Positions 1 through 64,000 of a stretch of DNA of 64,000 bases are shown in pieces. The DNA is taken from contig OZ024747.1 of the NCBI GenBank assembly GCA_964016885.1, positions 31,744,001 to 31,808,000 of the forward strand. The letters are read 5' to 3'. Below the pieces are notes generated by a model that was given only the letters and a program-made list of their open reading frames with translations, ran no database searches and was not told the DNA's origin. The DNA comes from Eledone cirrhosa (Eukaryota). Within the stretch, counting starts at the first letter, position 1, and every line of letters begins with the position of its first letter. Made by a program: the position numbers and the translations under genes.

Positions 1-580
1 CTACCTCCCCATGAGACACGATGGGATAGCTAGAACCATCTGGAATGCACTTCGGAAAACAAAATTAACAACAAACGAGGAAGAATATATTGAGACAGAT
101 GGCACTAAGGAATACTGGTGGAACCTGAAAATAAAAAGTGCCACCAAATTAAAGCACAACCGGCCTGATATTGTTGTTTGGGACCACACATTGAAAACGT
201 GTTCTGTCGTGGAGATCAGCTGCCCACTTGATGTAAACGTTGTCAGAAAAATACAGGAGAAGGAGGACATCTACGGACCATTGATGAGGAGTTTACAAAT
301 CCAGTATCCAAGATACACCTTTAGCTTCATACCCATCACTATTGGAGCTACGGGTTATATACCAACCCGCTTGGACCAAAGGATGACTGAACTTGGATTT
401 GCGGACAAAAAGCGCAGCTCCCTAATTCATAGTCTACAAATGGCTGCGATAGCTGGTATCTTCAAAATTTGCAATACATTCTTGCGATTCAAGGGATGAC
501 AATTTCTTTTCTTTTACAACCTTGCCACCACGAAGGTGGCCGGTCAAACAAAATATACTCGAAATTAAGAGAAAGAGATA
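1..580 (+). mobile_element. 3' end of an RLE-type non-LTR retrotransposon (R4/Dong-like); ORF 11..499 encodes the restriction-like endonuclease domain
   Basis: ORF 11..499 has RHD...YWWN...KHNRPDIVVWD...VEISCP...K...Y..L...IPITIGATG, the RHD / PD-(D/E) motif set of REL endonucleases. The ORF runs off the window start; a short 3' UTR ends before a (CATA)n tract. Confidence 0.8.
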
Positions 581-825: not shown

Positions 826-3230
826 TCATCATCATCATCATCATCATCATCATTTTACGTCCACTTTTCTCTGCTTGCAAGGGTGGGACGGGTCTTATTC
901 AGCACAGCATCTCTCCACTCGTCACAGTCCCTCGTCATCTCCACCGTGAGCTTGATTTGAGGTCTGTTCTCACCACCTCCGCCCATGTTTTTCGTGGTCT
1001 ACCTCTACCACGTCTTCCTTCAACTGGCAATTCCTGGCACTTCTTCACCCATCGGTCATCCTCCATGCGCATCACATGTCCATACCACCTCAGTCTCCTC
1101 TCCCGTACACTACATTCAGACACAGTTTCTCTCTCAACACATTTATGCTGGATCGTTCACGCACATTTACACTGCACATCCAACGGAGCATGCTTGCCTC
1201 ATTTCTCTCCAGCCGTCGCATATCCTCTGCAGTTGCTGCCCATGTCTCACTACCATGCAACATCGCGCTCCTCACACAGGCATCATACAACCGGCCTTTC
1301 GTACGCAGGAAGAAACCCTTCTTCGTCAACAGAGGAAGCAGCTCCCTAAACTTCTTCCAACCCGTCCTTATTCTAGATAATATGGCCTCGGAACACCCTC
1401 CTCCCATGCTAATCTGATCTCCTAGGTACCGGAAGCTATCCACCACTTCTATAGCGCCCTCTTGCATTTGAAAAATGTGTCTATCAGTGCGACTTCTACT
1501 GTCTAATTTCCCTGTACATCTACTGCATACATATTTCTCCCTACCTGTTAGTTTGCCTGCTATCCCACTACATCTCTTGTGTACCCAGGATCTGCATTGT
1601 GTGCATTTTATAGAATTTATGCCAGTTCCTTTTCTGCATATCGAACATGGCCATTTCCCTGACGGAATCAGGGTTTTGTCCTCTTTTCTACTCATCAACA
1701 CTTTTGTCTTAGCTAGATTCACTCTCAGTCCTCTTGCTTCCAACTGCTGTTTCCATAGCCAGAATTTATTCTCTAGCTCCTCTACTGATTCTGCTATAAG
1801 AACCAGATCGTCAGCATAGAGAAGTTCCCATGGACAGCCAGTCTTAAACTCCTCTGTTATGGCTTGGAGGACTATAATGAACAAGAGCGGGCTGAGGACC
1901 GAACCCTGATGTACTCCTACTTGTATCTGGAATTCCTCACTAAACTCCATTCCTACCCTGACTTTACTGAGAGTACCTCTGTACAAAGTTTGCACTATCC
2001 TCACAAGCCATTCCTCAACACCTAGCTTCCTTAGGGACCACCAGATGACAGATCGGGGTACCCTATCAAAGGCCTTCTCTAGGTCAACAAAGGCTAAGTA
2101 TAGTGGCTTATTCTTCTCTAAGAACCTCTCTTGCAATTGTCTCACCAAGAAGAGGGCATCTGTTGTACTCTTCCCAGGCACAAAACCAAACTGCATCTCA
2201 TCTAGTTTGAACCTTTCTCTAATTAGTTGTGCTAAAATCCTTTCTGCCACTTTCATAACCTGATCTATCAGTTTTATACCCCTATAATTGCTCCTCTCCA
2301 AAGCATCCCCTTTACCTTTGTAGCAATTTATGAGAATACTGCTGCACCAGTCTTTGGGTATGACATCACCATATATAGCCTGATTGATGATGCGTGCAAC
2401 CAGTTTAGTGCCTACGTCCCCTGATGCCTTCAGCATCTCAGCAACTATTCCTGATGGTCCGGCCACCTTACCATTTTTCATTTCCCTAATCGCCTCTTGG
2501 ACCCTATATTCGTCAATCTCAATAGCTGGTCCCTCTGTCGGATCTACCAAGGGTAATTTCTCTCTCTCCCATTCGTTCTCCACATTCATCAGTCTCTCAT
2601 AATGACATTTCCAGGCCTCCTTTTTCTGATCATTCGTGACACTAAGTACACCGGCATCATCCCGGACACATTTATCTCCAACAACATCCTGATTTGCATT
2701 GACACACTGCCTTGCAATGTGGAACACCGCACGCCTCTGATCTTCCCGTTACAGAACATTGGCAAACCTCCTACTCTCTGCCTCCCTGCGTGCTAAGTAC
2801 ACCTGACGTCTAGCTTCTCTCTTAGTGGCTGTATATTCTTCCCTACTCCCACCCTTTTTCCAAGCCTTCCATGCTAGTCTTTTGTCTCTAATAGCCTTAT
2901 CTACTGTGCTGTTCCACCACCAGGTCACTCTCTGTCTGGTTGGAGCTCTGCTCCAGCCACAGGTTTCATCAGTAGCCTGCAGCAAGTTGTCACGTAAGAA
3001 ATTCCAGTTATTATCTATGTCATACGTCTCTAAATCGTCTTCTTTTTCGTCATATACATCTTGAAAGGCTTTCCTAAATTTGTATTTTAGTGAAAGGTCT
3101 TTTAGCTTCCAGACCTTTCTTCTCCACACCTTCCTATATGTCTCATTCCATCTCTTGCTTACTGAGATATCACTAACAACTAACCTATGCTGTGGGGTAC
3201 ATTCTGTGGGGTACATTCTGTGGGGTACAT
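826..3230 (-). mobile_element. RTE-clade LINE, 5'-truncated (RT plus Cys/His PHD-like finger), with a premature stop and a 3' frameshift
   Basis: ORFs 2749..3216 and 1090..2727 are in one frame, split by TAA at 2749-2751 (CGA in the copy at 14 kb). RT motifs NYRGIKL, QFGF, FVDLEKAFD, GVHQGSVLSPLLF, LYADD. C-terminal RLRWYGHVMR...GRPRKTW in 935..1123. (CAT)n tail at 826-852. Confidence 0.95.
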
Positions 3231-3253
3231 ATAAATATATATATATATATATA

Positions 3254-3414
3254 TATATTTGAAAAAAAGGAAAATAATGACTTCACTTGTAGTGTTAAAT
3301 AATTTGATTTAATATTATAATATATTATACAATTTTATGTTATAATATTATAAAATTAAATCAAATTATTTAACACTACAAGTGAAGTCATTCTTTTCCT
3401 TTTTTTCAAATATA
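3254..3414. repeat. Fold-back inverted repeat, about 60-bp arms
   Basis: 3254-3313 (tatatttgaaaaaaaggaaaataatgacttcacttgtagtgttaaataatttgatttaat) is the reverse complement of 3355-3414 with one mismatch. Confidence 0.9.
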
Positions 3415-3469
3415 CCTAACTGTACCAAGGATCTCAAACATTTTCCAATGTATATATATATATATATTT

Positions 3470-3770
3470 GTTTTGCGAGGTTTTTTATATGAAATCCTGT
3501 GTCGAAACAAATATTGTTATACTTGGGGAGGGTCATATTGTTGTAATAATATTGCCAGAATTAATAACAGAACACACTCACTGTTTGGTTGGTTTTCGCT
3601 TCTGTATCTTTTATATCAGTTAATTCATTCGGTCCTCAATGTTTACCATTGACTGACCAACGGTCAAAAATACAGATATAATATAGATATAAACACATAT
3701 ATATAGTCTAATAAAGTTCTTTCGTTGCACATCTGCAACATCGTCAGTGGTGATATCTACGCCATCTTTA
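3470..3770 (-). mobile_element. Probable PLE pseudo-LTR fragment with an HHR-like motif (3713-3750), between (TA)n tracts
   Basis: Homologous to 6516-6720, 7170-7405, 13283-13443, 19160-19428 and 23620-23795. Minus strand reads CTGACGA-t-gttgca-gatg-tgcaac-GAAA-gaactt. Confidence 0.65.
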
Positions 3771-3795
3771 TATTTATATATATATATATATATGC

Positions 3796-3829
<34 letters not shown>

Positions 3830-3938
3830 GTGTATATATGAAGTAATTCCATCGGAAAAGTCCAGGAAAAAAGAGTGCTCTATGTAAGCAACAGAGCTTA
3901 ATTATTATTATTATGTAATAAACAACATGAGGCAATTA

Positions 3939-3998
3939 TTCCATTTACCAGTGGTTTCTTAAAAGCAAAAGGTTTTGCTTTCAATCCTCAGAATGAAA
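3939..3998 (-). ncRNA. Type I hammerhead ribozyme (antisense copy in the palindrome arm)
   Basis: Exact reverse complement of 4019-4078. Confidence 0.8.
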
Positions 3999-4018
3999 AA
4001 TCCTGGTAAACCAGGATT

Positions 4019-4078
4019 TTTCATTCTGAGGATTGAAAGCAAAACCTTTTGCTTTTAAGAAACCACTGGTAAATGGAA
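4019..4078 (+). ncRNA. Type I hammerhead ribozyme (copy 1)
   Basis: Stem I tttcatt/aatggaa; core CTGAGGA; stem II ttgaaagcaaaa-cc-ttttgcttttaa; GAAA; stem III cc-act-gg; GUA cleavage triplet, cut predicted after 4071. Confidence 0.85.
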
Positions 4079-4441
4079 TAATTGCCTCATGTTGTTTATT
4101 ACATAATAATAATAATTAAGCTCTGTTGCTTACATAGAGCACTCTTTTTTCCTGGACTTTTCCGATGGAATTACTTCATTTATACAGCTCCAACCGGGAT
4201 TGATCGCAGCATATTCGATATTACATATACGATTAGCACTTTCCAGCCCGATTAGTTGAGCACTCTACAGTTTTCAGGAATTTAACCAACATACACCATG
4301 GACCTTTATGATTTGGATTATTCTATCAAAAACATACCCACTCCTTCCAACACAACATACACCAAAATCCTCATTGATAAAATCGAGCAAGTCGTTAAAA
4401 GAATGAGATGGAAGGCAATGGTTTAAAGGAAAACCAGGATT

Positions 4442-4501
4442 TTTCATTCTGAGGATTGAAAGCAAAACCTTTTGCTTTTAAGAAACCACTGGTAAATGGA
4501 A
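4442..4501 (+). ncRNA. Type I hammerhead ribozyme (copy 2)
   Basis: Identical to 4019-4078, one repeat unit downstream. Confidence 0.85.
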
Positions 4502-4863
4502 TAATTGCCTTATGTTGTTTATTACATAATAATAATAATTAAGCTCTGTTGCTTACATAGAGCACTCTTTTTTCCTGGACTTTTCCGATGGAATTACTTC
4601 ATTTATACAGCTCCAACCGGGATTGATCGCAGCATATTCGATATTACATATACGATTGGCACTTTCCAGCCCGATTAGTTGAGCACTCTACAGTTTTCAG
4701 GAATTTAACCAACATACACCATGGACCTTTATGATTTGGATTATTCTATCAAAAACATACCCACTCCTTCCAACACAACATACACCAAAATCCTCATTGA
4801 TAAAATCGAGCAAGTCGTTAAAAGAATGAGATGGAAGGCAATGGTTTAAAGAAAACCAGGATT

Positions 4864-4923
4864 TTTCATTCTGAGGATTGAAAGCAAAACCTTTTGCTTT
4901 TAAGAAACCACTGGTAAATGGAA
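4864..4923 (+). ncRNA. Type I hammerhead ribozyme (copy 3)
   Basis: Identical to 4019-4078, in the third partial unit. Confidence 0.85.
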
Positions 4924-4952
4924 TAATTGCCTTATGTTGTTTATTACATAAT

Positions 4953-4996
<44 letters not shown>

Positions 4997-5047
4997 GTGT
5001 GTGTATATATGTATATTTATATAATATATATATACAAATACACACAC

Positions 5048-5142
<95 letters not shown>

Positions 5143-5228: not shown

Positions 5229-5279
5229 AGATTCTACAGGACTAGAACTGTTTCATTCTTGAGAAATCATCAGGAATCT
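5229..5279 (-). ncRNA. Type I hammerhead ribozyme, second family
   Basis: Minus strand: agattc-CTGATGA-t-ttc-tcaa-gaa-t-GAAA-cag-ttctagtc-ctg-TA-gaatct. 6-bp stem I, GUA triplet, CTAG palindrome in loop 3. Confidence 0.75.
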
Positions 5280-13290: not shown

Positions 13291-14086
13291 ATTTGAGGAG
13301 GGTCATATTGTTATAATATCACCAGAAATAATAATAAAACACAGTCACTGTTTGGTTTGGATTCGTTTTCACTTCTGTATATTTTATATCCCTATAGTTA
13401 ATTTAGCTGGCAATCAATGTTTATCATTAGTTGACCAACGGTTATATATATATATATAAAATTGAAAAAGTGAAGAATAACAGGGTCAACAGTACCATCA
13501 AGGGAATTTATTTACAGTCTAACAATTGTTTCAATGATTGAGTTGTCTAAAAATTGCTAAACACTAATCGGATTACCTACAACAATATCTTGTTATCCTA
13601 TATATCTGTGAATATATATATACAGTCTATCACAGTTCTTTCATCACATACCTGTGACATCATCAATGGTACTATTATTACGTTTTCTCCCCTTTATTTT
13701 ATCGACTCCTTATGGGGTCGATAAAATAAAGTACCAGTAATGCACTGGGTAATTGCTGGCCTTGTGCCTAAAGTAGAAACAATTATGTTTTCTCCCCTTG
13801 TATTGTAATTCTATTGCATTTTCATTTATATTTATTTATTTATTTATTCTTGTCTCTGCTTGTGCATGTGTTTATGTGTGTGCATGTGTTTATGTGTGTG
13901 TCTGAGTCTGTGTGTGTGTTTGTATTCTATCTTTGTTCACTAGTGTGTGTTTATGTGTGGTTGTAATTGTACCTGCGTATATTTATTTATATTTATCTTA
14001 GATCACTATGTGTGTTTGTGTATGGTTGTTGTTGTTGTTGTTGTTATTCCATTCATTTTTTATGTTTAACTTTGGTTTTCTTAGTT

Positions 14087-16053
14087 CTAAGAGAGAAGCT
14101 AGACGTCAGGTGTACTTAGCATGCAGGGAGGCAGAGAGTAGGAGGTTTGCCAATGTTCTGCGACGGGAAGATCAGAGGCGTGCGGTGTTCCACATTGCAA
14201 GGCAGTGTGTCAATGCAAATCAGGATGTTGTTGGAGATAAATGTGTCCGGGATGATGCCGGTGTACTTAGTGTCACGAATGATCAGAAAAAGGAGGCCTG
14301 GAAATGTCATTATGAGAGATTGATGAATGTGGAGAACGAATGGGAGAGAGAGAAATTACCCTTGGTAGATCCGACAGAGGGACCAGCTATTGAGATTGAC
14401 GAATATAGGGTCCAAGAGGCGATTAGGGAAATGAAAAATGGTAAGGTGGCCGGACCATCAGGAATAGTTGCTGAGATGCTGAAGGCATCAGGGGACGTAG
14501 GCACTAAACTGGTTGCACGCATCATCAATCAGGCTATATATGGTGGTGTCATACCCAAAGACTGGTGCAGCAGTATTCTCATAAATTGCTACAAAGGTAA
14601 AGGGGATGCTTTGGAGAGGAGCAATTATAGGGGTATAAAACTGATAGATCAGGTTATGAAAGTAGCAGAAAGGATTTTAGCACAACTAATTAGAGAAAGG
14701 GTCAAACTAGATGAGATGCAGTTTGGTTTTGTGCCTGGGAAGAGTACAACAGATGCCCTCTTATTGGTGAGAAAAATGCAAGAGAGGTTCTTAGAGAAGA
14801 ATAAGCCACTATACTTAGCCTTTGTTGACCTAGAGAAGGCCTTTGATAGGGTACCCCGATCTGTCATCTGGTGGTCCCTAAGGAAGCTAGGTGTTGAGGA
14901 ATGGCTTGTGAGGATAGTGCAAACTTTGTACAGAGGTACTCTCAGTAAAGTCAGGGTAGGAATGGAGTTTAGTGAGGAATTCCAGATACAAGTAGGAGTA
15001 CATCAGGGTTCGGTCCTCAGCCCGCTCTTGTTCATTATAGTCCTCCAAGCCATAACAGAGGAGTTTAAGACTGGCTGTCCATGGGAACTTCTCTATGCTG
15101 ACGATCTGGTTCTTATAGCAGAATCAGTAGAGGAGCTAGAGAATAAATTCTGGCTATGGAAACAGCAGTTGGAAGCAAGAGGACTGAGAGTGAATCTAGC
15201 TAAGACAAAAGTGTTGATGAGTAGAAAAGAGGACAAAGCCCTGATTCCTTCAGGGAAATGGCCATGTTCGATATGCAGAAAAGGAACTGGCATAAATTCT
15301 ATAAAATGCACACAATGCAGATCCTGGGTACACAAGAGATGTAGTGGGATAGCAGGCAAACTAACAGGTAGGGAGAAATATGTATGCAGTAGATGTACAG
15401 GGAAATTAGACAGTAGAAGTCGCACTGATAGACACATTTTTCAAATGCAAGAGGGCACTATAGAAGTGGTGGATAGCTTCCGGTACCTAGGAGATCAGAT
15501 TAGCATGGGAGGAGGGTGTTCCGAGGCCATAGTATCTAGAATAAGGACGGGTTGGAAGAAGTTTAGGGAGCTGCTTCCTCTGTTGACGAAGAAGGGTTTC
15601 TCCCTGCGTACGAAAGGCCGGTTGTATGATGCCTGTGTGAGGAGCGCGATGCTGCATGGTAGTGAGACATGGGCAGCAACTGCAGAGGATATGTGACGGC
15701 TGGAGAGAAATGAGGCAAGCATGCTCCATTGGATGTGCAGTGTAAATGTGCGTGAACGACCCAGCATAAATGTGTTGAGAGAGATAGAATGTAGTGTACG
15801 GGAGAGGAGACTGAGGTGGTATGGACATGTGATGCGCATGGAGGATGACCGATGAGTGAAGAAGTGCCAGGAAATGCCAGTTGAAGGAAGACGTGGTAGA
15901 GGTAGACCATGAAAAATATGGTGGAGGTGGTGAGAACAGACCTCAGATCATTGAAGCTCACGGTGGAGATGACAAGGGACTGTGACGAGTGGAGAGATGC
16001 TGTGCTGAATAAGACCCGTCCCACCCTTGCAAGCAGGGAAAAGCGGACGTAAA

Positions 16054-28839: not shown

Positions 28840-29570
28840 AGGAGATGAAGGAGAAAAAAAAATTATATAAATATAAGAGGAGATGAGGGAGAAAAAGAAT
28901 ATATGGGTACAGAATGTGAGTTCAGAGAGTAATAATAATCGTAGTGGATGTAAGGCGTAATGAGTAAAGAAGAGTTCAAGGTGATTGAGTCATCGTAGGA
29001 ATGTCAATCCAGTTACAAAGTAGATGTGATTTCAGATGAGGACAACATCTGAAGATGCAAGTGGAAGTGGCTTTCAAATTTTGGAGAATTCTAAATTTTT
29101 CCGTGGTGCACAAAGAACAATTCTTTGTGCCCCTTTGGTATTCTCTAGAATGGTCCAAAATAGACGAATCGATAGTGTACAGAGCCGTTGCTGTTCTTTT
29201 ATCACAGTGTTTAAAAGAAGCGACATGTGCATAAAACCTGGTTTTGAACCTGTCCTGAGTCATGCCAACATATCGTTCACTCTTGGCTGGCTGGTTGTTA
29301 ATCAACGGTGTCAATTTGGCCTCATACACAACGGCTTTAGTATTACATTTGCCCTGTAATGGGAATTCTTCCGGCTTCCTGCAACTGCATCCTGGATTTA
29401 CTCTCGTACGATTAGAGTTGGTAATTTTAGTCTTCATTAATGGACAGTAAGAGTAACTGATTTTGACTATATTTCTATTAAAAATTTTATATCTATGATT
29501 AGGGGGAAAATGTTTGTCTAGGAGGTCAAGGAATTTCCTTCCTACATTAGTTTTGAGAGTTAGAGAGTAG
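28840..29570 (-). mobile_element. Penelope-like (Neptune-type) 3' fragment with GIY-YIG endonuclease
   Basis: ORF 28976..29437: CSCRK...PLQGKC...VVYEAKL...YVGMTQDRFKTRFYAH...CSLCTTEK; upstream TNVGRKFLDLLDKHFPP. Confidence 0.85.
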
Positions 29571-29856
29571 GAAGGAAATTCCTTGACCTCCTAGAAAAAC
29601 ATTTTCCTCCTAATTTCTAATGTTTTTCAAAAATAATTTTGAGATAGAGCGCTAGTGATGTTTGCTCTAATCAGATTAGAGCACTCTATCTCAAAATTAT
29701 TTTTGAAAAGCATTAGAAATGCGCAACCGGTAAAAACTTAAAACTAAAACTGAATACTAACCAATACTTATTACTAATTTATACTTATTCCTAATTAAAC
29801 TATTTTTCACTGGGAAAAATTTGTCAGCATTTTCTTTTCCTTTTTACTAATATATG

Positions 29857-39399: not shown

Positions 39400-41245
39400 T
39401 TTCTTCTAGTTGACTCCAAAGATCCAATTTCACTGAATTACAATATAGTCAGTAAATCAAAAGATATTTCTGGACCTGTTAGTCAGGCCTAACCCATTTA
39501 TCCAAAATATATTCTTCACATGAGGACAACCACCAAAACAATCCAGCCGTGTGTTGAGGCAGTGCTTATCCAAAGCTAATTGTGAGAGTATCCCCCATTT
39601 TTCATAATTACAAAGCTGACAAAATTTTGACCCATTTACGTAGGCGGTAGATCTTTCCAAAATACGACATTTGATGGAAAAGGGCGTGCCATTGTTCTTA
39701 AGACACCATACATGGTTTGTGAGCTGGGTGGTATGTTTTTTTATCAGGATATCTGAATGTTGTTTCATGATTCAAGAACGGGTTTTTAAACTGGCTCTTG
39801 GACATACCAACATAGGTCCAGGCTTCAGTTTGGTGGTTCTGGTTGGTGGAGGTAACCTCTGCTTGGTATATCACAGCCGGAGCGTTGTACTGTACGGTGG
39901 AGGGCTTTTGTGTTTGCCAGTGATATACATTTTTACATTGTTGATGCAAGAGTATCCTATTTTTACTGTATGGTGATTAAATATCTTTCAGTATTTATGG
40001 TAAGAATGTTTTGCCTACATTTATTTCACATTAAGTGAGAATGGTGGTGCAAACCATGTGACATCTTTATGTCTAGGTTTTTTTCTTATTAGATGTAGGG
40101 TGGTGATCTGGAGAGTATGTGATATTTTCAGATAAGCCATTGTTCTTCAGCACTAAATTATAGAAGGGTGCTGCCCTATCAAAGATGGCTTTGCTGGAAG
40201 AGAGGTTGGAAACCCTCTTGCTAATGCTGTTAATGAGGTTTTTAAAAACTATAGGTGGGTAGCTAGAGTCCTTATGGATGTACCAAAATTTCTCATGTGT
40301 GTGTCTGTAGGTCTAAATTAACATGTAGAAAGTTGACATTAGTGAGATTAGTGGCTATTTTAATTTTTAAACCTAAGCTGTTAAGTTGGTGATTAAGTTT
40401 TCCCTAATGGTGTCCAGGTCATGGCCGCTTTTGTGGCTGGATAAAGCCAGACCGTCATCGCGATATACGCCCATATGGAAATCAGGAAATTTGTTCTGTA
40501 TGCTGTCTAGAATAAATAGTTCCACCAAATCACATATATCTGCACTGTCCAATGATCCCATTGGTACATTGAATAGGCCATTGGTGGTTGATTTTTTTTA
40601 TCCAAGGGTCGCCGTTGCTAAAGAGGATGGTTTCCCTGCAGTGGATATGACTAAATGGTCCGAATCATCTACGTTAGTAAATTTAGTAGCGAAATCAAGG
40701 GACTTATCAAGTAAGGTCCTGGATATCGAGGGATATTGTGTAAATCTTAAATCTAGATTTCTTAGTGTGTCTGAGAACATTAAACCAATCTATAACTGTT
40801 TGAGTATTATTCCACTGGTTACGGTTGGACTGTTTCCTAATGGCTATATTAATTTTCCTGAGTATGTCCTTACTAACAAGACCTAGCTCTGTTTTAGCAG
40901 GGTTTATAAGTCTACAGATTGGTTTGTTAGCAAAGTCATCCTTATGATCCTTGAGGGTGATATAGGCCTCTGTCCTAGCCAGGCATTCCAATTTCTTCCC
41001 TTCTCCAATGGTGGCAGCTCCATCCTTAGCGTCAGTATTAATGGCATAATAGGTGGCAGGGTCAGCATTTTTGTATTTAGCCTGTATGGTTTTGCTAAGG
41101 AGTTGGTTATAAGTAGGCTGATCTAATTCATATAGGTTGTTGGTTTTATTAGATAGGATGAATGTTCTATTAGAGCATCTGAAGTTTTTAATGTCTCTCG
41201 TCCTATGGACTAAGTACCCTTACTCTTGGTTATTTCCACTTAACT
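39400..41245 (-). mobile_element. Near-full-length, degenerate Penelope-like element (Neptune-type RT plus GIY-YIG)
   Basis: Fragments AYITLKDHKDDFANKPICRLINPAKTELG...NQWNNTQTVIDWF; YPSISRTLL; MGSLDSADICDLV...GVYRDDGL; AVIYQAEV...YVGMS; CQLCNYEK...CLNTRLDCFGGCPH. Confidence 0.9.
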
Positions 41246-44582: not shown

Positions 44583-45268
44583 GAGAGCAGTGGATTGGTA
44601 GAATCTTTAGAGCATTTGTTCAGGCTCTTTACATTCTGAGTTCAAATCCCATTGAGGTTAGCTTTGCCTATCATCCCTACGGAGTCGTTAAAATAAAGTA
44701 CCAGTTACGTACTGGTGTTGATTTAATTCATTTTCCAATCCCCCCAAATTGTTGACCTTGTGCCTAAATCAGAACCATTATTTTAATATGACAAGTACCA
44801 GTAATGCACTGGGTTTTTGCTGGCCTTGTGCCTAAAGTATAAACAATTATTTTAATATGACAAGGAGTGGATTGGCAGTATCGGTAGAGAGTCGGACACC
44901 ATGCTTTGACGCATAGAGTTACGGCCCTTGCCATTCTGAGTTCAAATCCCGCCGAGGTTAACTTTGCCTTTCATCCTTACGGGGTCGATAAAATAAAGTA
45001 CCAGTAATACACTGGGTTATTGCTGGCCTTGTGCCAAAAGTAGAAACAATTATTTTAATATGACAGAGGCGATGAATTGGCAATATCGGTAGAGGGTTGG
45101 ACGCCATGCTTTCCAGCATAGTTACGTCCCTTTACGGTCTGAGTTCAAATCCTGCCAAGGTTAACTTTGCCTTTCATCCTCATGGGGTCGATAAAATAAA
45201 GTACCAGTAATGTACTGCGTATTTGCTGGCCTTGTGCCAAAAGTAGAAACAATTATTTTAATATGACA
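44583..45268 (+). mobile_element. Head-to-tail cluster of main-family SINEs (three full copies plus one tail)
   Basis: Copies at about 44585, 44793 (tail only), 44864 and 45066, each ending in attattttaatatgaca. Confidence 0.85.
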
Positions 45269-45974
45269 GAATTTTTCTGCATGGTTATTATTAAATTTTT
45301 AATTTGTGCATTTGGCTTTAAATGTACAATCACAGAGGTTTATTTTTCGCAGCAAAATTTGCAATAACCAGTAAATAATGACCCTAAGGCTAGAATATAA
45401 AATAAAATAAAAATTCTCAAATTTATTTGTGACCCTCAGTTTGGGGAAGTTTATAGATTTGGTAGATGCCAGCTTAAGTATGCTACAGTGAAAACAGATT
45501 TCTAAGTGATCTAAGTAGTGTTGGAGTATTTACGCATCAGTGTCTAGAGAATGGTGAAAAAATTTGAGTTTGTGTCATCTGTGTATGCTTTATATAAGCA
45601 GAGATTTGTTGGGGGACAGAGGGGGCCTCTGGGCAATCCTTGTCAAACAGTGACCCCTCTAGGAACAGCCATGTCCCCCACCACCTAACCTGCACTGCCC
45701 TGGGCCCTGAAAGCTGAACTGGCCCAAGGTGTAGGTTTTAATGTGTGGGAAAAAAGATGGAACACTTTTGACCCTCAATTTGAGAAATTGCAGATCAGCT
45801 TAGTGTTGTAGAATGTAAGCCAGTATGTTGTGTTGGTTTTTAAACTCTATTGATATCAATGGTAGTTAAAATGTTATGTGCAAGAGATCTTTTGCTGTTG
45901 AAACCATTTGAGTGTAAAGATCTAAAATTGTGTGATTTAGTGAAGGCAATGCCTGAGTTAATGATGTAAAGCAT

Positions 45975-62853: not shown

Positions 62854-63582
62854 ATAATAATAAATTTGAAGACTGAAATCCCAAAAGGGCTCGATAAGAA
62901 TAAATATATATCAAATATATAAGAACCGCAGAGCAAATATTAAATATTTATTAAAATAACAGATTAAAGTTTAAGCAAAGAATCGCTGCTTTCACCCTTA
63001 ACGGGGTCTTCTGAAACTAAAAAAATAAATCTGTGAACGCAGAAGTAAATATTTCGAAAAACCTTGCAGCCGAAGGAAGACAGGAAGACGATACTTCGGT
63101 TCGTGGAAACGTTCCCTGGCAATGAACGAAAAAAAAAAAAAAACGAAGATAATACGTCATTATTTGGAGCGGAGAAAACAATTACACGCAAAGACAAAAC
63201 CACGTTTATGGTATAACTGAAGTCGTAGACTAAAATTCTATTTAGGAAACAGAATGATTCTCGGATTCAGAGTTAAGAATAATGTAAATAAATTACAGAG
63301 GTAATTGAAATCAACAAAAATTAAATATAAACATGCACGCATCCATATATGTACATACACATGCATACGCGAAAACACCCACCATGGGTATGCAAATACA
63401 AGCACATACACCAAAAAATACGCACGCACATACACAACCCACGCAACGCCTGTACCCACACACATACGAACGTATACACCAAATTCACATAAAATATATA
63501 TATACAAAAATATATATATATATGTGTGTGTGTGTGGGTGTATACATATAATTATATAAACGTATATAAATATACACACAGT

Positions 63583-64000
63583 TATACCATAAACGTGGTT
63601 TTGTCTTTGCGCGTAATTGTTCTCCCGCATCACATAATGACGTATTATCTTCGTTTTTTCCGTTCATTGCCAGAGAACGTCCATGAACCCCCTAATAGAA
63701 TATTAGTCTACGACTTCATTTATACCATAAACGTGGTTTTGTCTTTGCGTGTAATTGTTTTCACCGCTCCAAATATTGACGTATTATCTTCGTTTTTTTC
63801 GTTCATTGCCAGAGAACGTCCATGAACCCCCTAATAGAATATTAGTCTACGTCTTCATTTATACCATAAACGTGGTTTTGTCTTTGCGTGTAATTGTTTT
63901 CACCGCTCCAAATAATGACGTATTATCTTCGTTTTTTTCCGTTCTTTGCCAGGGAACGTCTCCACGAACCAAAGTATCGTCTTCCTGTCTTCCTTCGGCT
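63583..64000. repeat. Tandem repeat (138-139 bp, three units) that is the inverted copy of about 63066-63240
   Basis: tataccataaacgtggttttgtctttgcg at 63583, 63721 and 63860; reverse complement of the repeat family at 62960-63240. Confidence 0.9.

Follow-up and report, generated by a model that had tools for sequence, protein, structure and literature searches.

Head-to-head Penelope-like insertion with tandem hammerhead motifs in Eledone cirrhosa: a plausible retrozyme precursor

We analysed a stretch of 64,000 nucleotides from Eledone cirrhosa (contig OZ024747.1, 31744001-31808000, in the 3.0-Gb assembly GCA_964016885.1), hereafter the window, in which TRF reports a tandem array at 4008-4959 with a period of 423, 2.3 copies and 99% matches. 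This agrees with a preliminary description of the same DNA, which had noted about 2.25 near-identical tandem units. With u1 set at window position 4010 and u numbers running along the parent Penelope-like element (PLE), the array contains 2.25 units of 422-423 bp, each made up of u1-u416 of the parent followed by a purine filler of 4-5 nt. Unit starts lie at 4010, 4433 and 4855, spaced by 423 and then by 422. Counting the only 2 nt of parent sequence present upstream of each u1, the plus-strand units 1 and 2 extend over 4008-4425 and 4431-4848, and a partial unit 3 (4853-4959, plus strand) covers u1-u105 and closes at the usual short 3' end of the family. The filler at joint 1 (4426-4430, plus strand) reads AAGGA and is absent from the parent; that at joint 2 (4849-4852, plus strand) reads AAGA, one G shorter. 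Within a unit the order is ribozyme, terminal 'tail' of the element, leader and ORF start. Hammerhead, leader and ORF start had been recognised before, but the layout had been given in the wrong order, as the ribozyme precedes the 'tail' and is not preceded by a PLE 3' end. Units 1 and 2 each hold the 42-codon start of the 710-aa PLE ORF (4298-4426 and 4721-4849, plus strand), which ends at the unit junction as had been described. The first filler base completes its stop codon, turning the parental TAC into TAA. What had been proposed as an encoded 42-aa micropeptide does not differ from the N-terminus of the PLE protein and is cut short by this filler-made stop, and there is no sign of a function.

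Head-to-head with the array and 2 nt from its start lies an inverted, 5'-truncated arm on the minus strand (3831-4007; 177 bp, 99% identity), which the preliminary description had overlooked. It corresponds to u1-u177, the pLTR with a 70-nt tail, and a fourth hammerhead lies in it, also on the minus strand. None of the three forward passes, nor the arm, starts more than 2 nt from u1, and the outer ends of the insertion are u177, inverted, on the left and u105, forward, on the right. The whole insertion measures 1.13 kb and is flanked on both sides by (TA)n runs reported by TRF (3769-3839 and 4957-5141), the left one being the likely target. Two positions, u79 and u226, distinguish unit 1 from unit 2, and the two joints differ by the one G. 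A226 is unique to unit 1; the rare C79 is common to unit 1 and the inverted arm, whereas units 2 and 3 carry the parental T. Over u1-u416, unit 2 aligns without any difference to one parent copy, L005. Two source RNAs behind C79 and A226 were considered and found unsupported, as A226 occurs in unit 1 only and C79 is found elsewhere in 13 matches, to copies that are older and diverged.

The remainder of the window is rich in repeats. An AT-rich near-perfect palindrome of ~160 bp (3262-3420) is perhaps another head-to-head mini-insertion, and two further tandems, at 44793-45270 (203 bp x 2.4) and 63582-63960 (139 bp x 2.7), contain no hammerhead in our motif scan. By eye, broken ORF fragments at 28979-29590 and 39460-41219 (both minus) resemble the same PLE clade, and LINE-type RT frames occupy 1090-2748 (minus) and 14002-15693 (plus). 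Among the longer frames of the window we recognised by eye only transposon fragments and no host genes.

Each unit contains, in order, CUGAGGA, helix II, GAAA, CCACUGG and UA, and the type I hammerhead core (CUGANGA, GAAA, UH and helices I-III) is complete in all of them. On the plus strand the three hammerheads span 4013-4087, 4436-4510 and 4858-4932, with cores at 4026, 4449 and 4871 and predicted cuts after 4071, 4494 and 4916; the motif scan returned the same cut coordinates as had been predicted earlier. It identified seven hammerheads in the window, and 20 shuffled versions gave none. Outside the insertion, motifs lie at 5273 (minus), 6212 (plus) and 25948 (plus), the last resembling an older copy of the same PLE family and the other two differing in sequence and likely belonging to other families. 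Across fetched copies, position 7 of the core varies between G, A and U, a variation expected at that position, the other core bases being fixed by the scan requirement. The earlier label of a canonical type I hammerhead in each unit holds for the complete cores, but 'canonical' overstates the rest: instead of a 4-bp helix II with G10.1-C11.1, helix II has 11 bp and opens with U-A, helix III has 2 bp, within a palindrome, and the window gave no match to the Rfam hammerhead families at the gathering score. At E<=10, Rfam again listed no hammerhead in 3800-5000: what matched the palindrome was of miRNA type and driven by its hairpin, and the other matches were weak. The ribozyme call is therefore based on the motif.

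Folding predicted pairing of 0.78-1.0 for helix II, <=0.014 for helix I in the monomer and <0.09 for helix III, and the two helix-III strands of a dimer are predicted to pair with -9.6 kcal/mol. The ribozyme is predicted to need a dimer for cleavage; weak monomer helices I and III together with a dimer helix III fit the dimer-dependent PLE hammerheads described by Cervera and de la Pena 2014 (PMC4209133). Shared with the minimal and variant PLE hammerheads of that description are the short palindromic helix III, the enlarged helix II and the predicted dimeric cleavage; different is the 11-bp helix II without G10.1-C11.1, a pair called highly conserved there. If transcribed, the tandem ribozymes could, on this model, pair up as a dimeric hammerhead, whose cleavage would free monomers of 422-423 nt. 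No RNA data set was among the sequencing runs listed, which carries no information on expression. In the predicted fold of a read-through RNA, hammerhead 1 is fully sequestered by the inverted arm. Among animal retrozymes, Li et al. 2026 (10.64898/2026.07.22.740005) report cleavage in 1 of 9 tested dimers.

A genome search with unit 1 listed 43 matches (40 of 2586 candidates being scored), 4 at the present locus and 39 elsewhere. Among the listed outside matches, 37 of 39 end at u416. Beyond u416 all 28 outside loci that were read continue into the ORF, and an intact ORF of 710-711 aa with the same ATG is present in 10 of 20 long loci; the PLE origin claimed earlier for the units is borne out. 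The element is ~4.1 kb long (in the reference copy, successive u1 positions are 4143 nt apart). By eye, its protein carries RWK, DKT, YRDD, CxCx5C, CxxC and CxH motifs plus a GIY-YIG-type region at the C-terminus, and no CCHH. A Pfam scan of the protein gave no significant match, and 1339 homologues were found at E<=1e-20 among 8000 scored, one of them carrying PF01541. As the protein motifs match the clade marks given by Craig et al. (PMC8557442), the parent is, judging from its sequence, a young Hydra-clade PLE. Its structural marks include a single ORF with an RT, a pLTR with hammerhead, tandem and inverted insertions, a tail and a (TA)n target. With the Hydra-clade PLEs of that paper it shares the protein motifs, the GIY-YIG-type C-terminus, the absence of CCHH, the (TA)n targets, the pLTR hammerhead, the partial tandems, the inverted 5'-truncated arm and the tail at one end, the one-sided tail and inverted arm being described PLE features (PMC8557442). 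The parent differs from the account given there in its tail (~70 nt versus 30-40 bp), its length (~4.1 kb versus mostly <3 kb) and a second hammerhead in its 3' region, and the tandem at the present locus repeats a 416-nt 5' fragment instead of a 3'-anchored partial copy. This second hammerhead lies after the ORF (~2870-2960 in L045) in most of the long loci L031-L050 and shares ~82% identity with the first. Nearly all copies listed carry G at its position 17, giving UG instead of UH, so that it is likely non-cleaving.

Exact copies in the assembly number 3729 for u44-75, 1863 for u71-100 and 39 for u181-206, a 26-mer from the leader, and young family copies are 99.0-99.5% identical to unit 1. 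In the 96 pLTR copies recovered from the first 100 matches listed, all 3' ends fall at u102-110 (50) or u169-177 (46) and abut (TA)n or (CA)n(TA)n runs. The insertion's own ends and its (TA)n site follow this ordinary family pattern, which upholds the earlier view that a greater-than-unit insertion was produced here by PLE machinery. At the other end, 55 of the 96 extend beyond u1 by >100 nt upstream. The remaining 41 have their start in the range u-60 to u64, many of them as head-to-head pairs with one 3' end of each kind; the short copies cluster at ~u-32 to u27. We dropped u1 as a universal family start, as just 3 of the 96 begin at u-5 to u1. Ten of the 41 short copies start at u-27 to u-25, and several copies, L287, L199 and L174 among them, start at u-27 with an extra G, possibly marking a capped start site in the pLTR. 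At L096 (1386-1658; C1703), three copies of u61-97 between TA runs form a local duplication starting at the predicted cut site. Rare variants are shared between arms in 3 of 65 pairs, present locus included, a sharing that does not separate fold-back copying from later conversion.

The joint pattern has two exact matches in the 3.0-Gb assembly, both at this locus. Among the 39 copies of the leader 26-mer the only same-strand pair <4 kb apart is the present one, and no same-strand pair <3 kb occurs among the first 100 matches listed for u71-100 or for u44-75. The joint is private to the locus, and so this assembly holds no daughter or parent locus. The preliminary description had suggested that the units may be a retrozyme being born from a PLE and had named a genome-wide junction search as one check, with a junction confined to this locus as a refutation; that is the result obtained with respect to a dispersed retrozyme, and, the 39 leader copies including a single close pair, the spread of a retrozyme is not supported. 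Multiple dispersed copies are a feature of retrozymes as set out by Cervera and de la Pena 2020 (PMC7229834), and because the joint's two matches both lie here we do not file the locus as a retrozyme. As to the absence of protein coding in retrozymes, the units hold only the 42-codon stub of the parent ORF: no functional protein, while coding sequence remains. The resemblance to non-LTR retrozymes (PMC7229834; 10.64898/2026.07.22.740005) nonetheless comprises tandem units in the range of 150-450 bp, low GC, a type I hammerhead per unit and PLE pLTR ancestry, Li et al. deriving animal retrozymes from PLE pLTRs by phylogeny. The locus also fits the tandem-plus-motif part of their working definition (10.64898/2026.07.22.740005), as judged by our own motif scan. 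It differs from these non-LTR retrozymes in being one locus, known from sequence alone, rather than many. In further contrast to them, it keeps the leader, the 42 codons and the inverted-arm architecture of a PLE and is still ~99.5-100% identical to its autonomous parent.

It is quite improbable that the array is an assembly artefact in which one unit was falsely duplicated, for example from two haplotypes. In its favour are the three differences between units 1 and 2 and the difficulty that palindromes and tandems cause in assembly (Craig et al., PMC8557442). Records bridging the joint were also found in none of 7 sequencing runs, which is weak evidence as these runs (6 of one species label) are other samples, contigs or reduced-representation reads. 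However, the locus lies within a 94-Mb contig, the joint and both ends require a real insertion, and the same kind of joint occurs at other loci.

We lean towards a single head-to-head PLE insertion in which the reverse transcriptase, within one integration, went back twice to the same short linear 5' RNA. That one integration event made the locus is indicated by the ordinary family outer ends, the (TA)n site and the private joint; re-entry on a linear template, by end complementarity at u416, passes aligned at u1 and fillers that differ. The template would have been a 5' fragment that begins 2 nt upstream of u1 and stops at u416, and its two ends could pair (AAACCA with UGGUUU). The enzyme would have primed at u105, run off the 5' end of the template, added a few bases and jumped to u416, and done so twice. 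On its third arrival the product would have been joined to, or folded back into, the u177 arm; priming for the two ends would have been at u105 and u177. R2-type enzymes are known to jump between templates after adding untemplated bases. As in serial template jumping by such enzymes and in concatemer synthesis by DRT2, repeated re-entry on one RNA would yield head-to-tail cDNA with no need for a covalent circle. The enzymes are different ones, and at the present locus the outcome is apparently a rare accident whose repeated frame is closed by a stop. The literature consulted yielded no demonstration of template jumping by a PLE enzyme, and a search of main texts outside subscription journals found no paper that describes PLE tandems built from short 5' fragments.

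The unit ends one base after TGGTTT (u410; 4419-4424, plus strand), the only such hexamer in the 4143-nt element and complementary to AAACCA at the unit start. Only 3 of 3963 possible breakpoints fit end complementarity of this kind, and end pairing is predicted at 0.31-0.40 for an RNA ending at u416 versus 0.0003 for one ending at u700. At both joints G-A directly precedes AAACCAGG. Among distinct starts of the AAAACCAGG type, drawn mostly from a search that selects for a non-parent base, 11 of 14 follow G, two of the 11 being the present locus; 9 of the 12 other AAAACCAGG starts follow G, and 3 of these 9 are explicable by the opposite arm. On one reading, the G before AAACCAGG would be derived from a cap. 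Back-splicing is out as a source of the joint, since GTTTA is kept after the only nearby GT and the landing is not on AG. In a further, very improbable reading, end-to-end ligation independent of the ribozyme turned a tailed 5' RNA fragment into a covalent circle that was then copied 2.25 times. Such a circle would draw on the predicted end pairing and on purine-rich fillers that resemble RNA tails, and one other locus, L286, has an identical joint in both arms; but it gives no reason for stopping at the joint, the fillers differ, and G-A before AAACC is found also at inversion centres, where a circle is unneeded.

A ribozyme-made circle had been the earlier choice of template: a 423-nt RNA cut by its own ribozyme, ligated and copied by rolling circle. 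Its source would be a two-ribozyme progenitor absent from this assembly. We consider this origin improbable. It accounts for the greater-than-unit length, the near-identical joints and the normal PLE ends; the unit contains both family end sites; circular templates for PLE tandems have been proposed (Cervera and de la Pena 2014, PMC4209133); and templates do traverse the cut site, as the copies reaching >100 nt upstream of u1 indicate. A full-length circle of the kind proposed in PMC4209133 would, moreover, explain the many long copies that exceed one unit. The starts, however, point elsewhere, as the passes and the arm begin within 2 nt of u1 and not at the cut site, u63. The two fillers differ, both cDNAs come to a halt within the few nt, of 423, that make up the joint, and the assembly contains no progenitor or sister locus. 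The low predicted pairing of monomer helix I and, weakly, the lack of bridging records in the 7 runs also count against it. The 5' ends of family copies are no commoner at the cut site than in the control: the counts are 11 among the first 30 of 75 hits and 11 among the first 30 of 71 control hits. This finding is neutral on ribozyme activity because a ligated circle leaves no such end. Of the rolling-circle proposal, the greater-than-unit PLE product therefore stands, while the ribozyme-cut circle is disfavoured by starts at u1 instead of u63 and by unequal fillers.

The fillers also provide an argument against two separate re-entries, as AAGGA and AAGA are nearly alike while the fillers at the centres of 14 other palindromes vary widely, which suggests that one joint was copied from the other. 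This could have happened in DNA: one jump, or an internal deletion of a full-length copy, would give a two-ribozyme mini-element at integration, and later unequal exchange between its 105-bp direct repeats would add a second 423-bp unit. The near-identity of the joint fillers is what this unlikely course of events would produce, local DNA-level repeats of family fragments exist (the three u61-97 copies of L096), and local amplification has been invoked for PLE termini by Li et al. 2026 (10.64898/2026.07.22.740005). Yet the insertion is very young, with unit 2 equal to the parent copy, and no same-strand pair <3 kb was listed among the first 100 matches in either search. If C79 was already there, T79 in unit 2 would also place the crossover within the last 26 of the 105 bp. 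A further point against two re-entries is that the 3 differences in ~1.1 kb can be explained by age, since young family copies are 99.0-99.5% identical to unit 1, so that the one-G change need not date from integration.

The pattern has counterparts elsewhere in the family. Among the 293 loci fetched, a redundant and not randomly chosen set, 7 others carry private jump-back joints of their own, leading from u128, u261, u302, u305, u314, u323 and u1030 to between u-27 and ~u50. Five of their fillers are purine-only, one is TC and one joint is an overlap; at L287 the ends are complementary too (AAAAA and TTTTT). All 42 hits of the search that selects for a non-parent base were read, and small re-start duplications at u1 are present in 2 of 14 palindrome centres elsewhere (L077 and L176). 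Three same-strand ribozymes are found only at the present locus among the jump-back loci. At L286 (1870-2356; C13, 17.628 Mb) an identical joint from u302 to ~u52 lies in both inverted arms, one of which is longer than a full 251-nt turn. This fits a templated joint, as from a circle, as well as two jumps. We rejected the L286 joint as a dispersed mini-element, as its 2 matches both lie within that single insertion. In an older-subfamily copy, L248 (C1, 102.24 Mb), u38-314 is joined to u-19..175, forming a short partial tandem with one whole ribozyme.

Overall, the locus behaves like a PLE insertion and resembles a retrozyme dimer. In the best explanation, re-entry during a single integration, the tandem ribozymes are passengers of an integration accident. 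The locus is most likely a one-off accident and a plausible retrozyme precursor rather than a retrozyme family. That it is already a competent retrozyme precursor, made in one step when the PLE enzyme re-entered a short 5' RNA, is distinctly unlikely. If true, the tandem units would unite a likely start site, the ribozyme and both end sites, and could be transcribed, cut as dimers, circularised and mobilised by intact copies of the same genome. In that case the private jump-back joints of the seven other loci would represent a running birth process for animal retrozymes, and the jump-back set would allow a direct test of circle versus template jump in PLEs, with L286 as a good test case. Craig et al. 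(PMC8557442) call for an in vitro system to explain PLE insertions, and Li et al. 2026 (10.64898/2026.07.22.740005) describe the mechanisms of retrozyme origin as still to be worked out. With 3729 exact copies of a pLTR 32-mer, intact ORFs and eight short-jump-back loci, this young family provides a sequence record of one candidate route.
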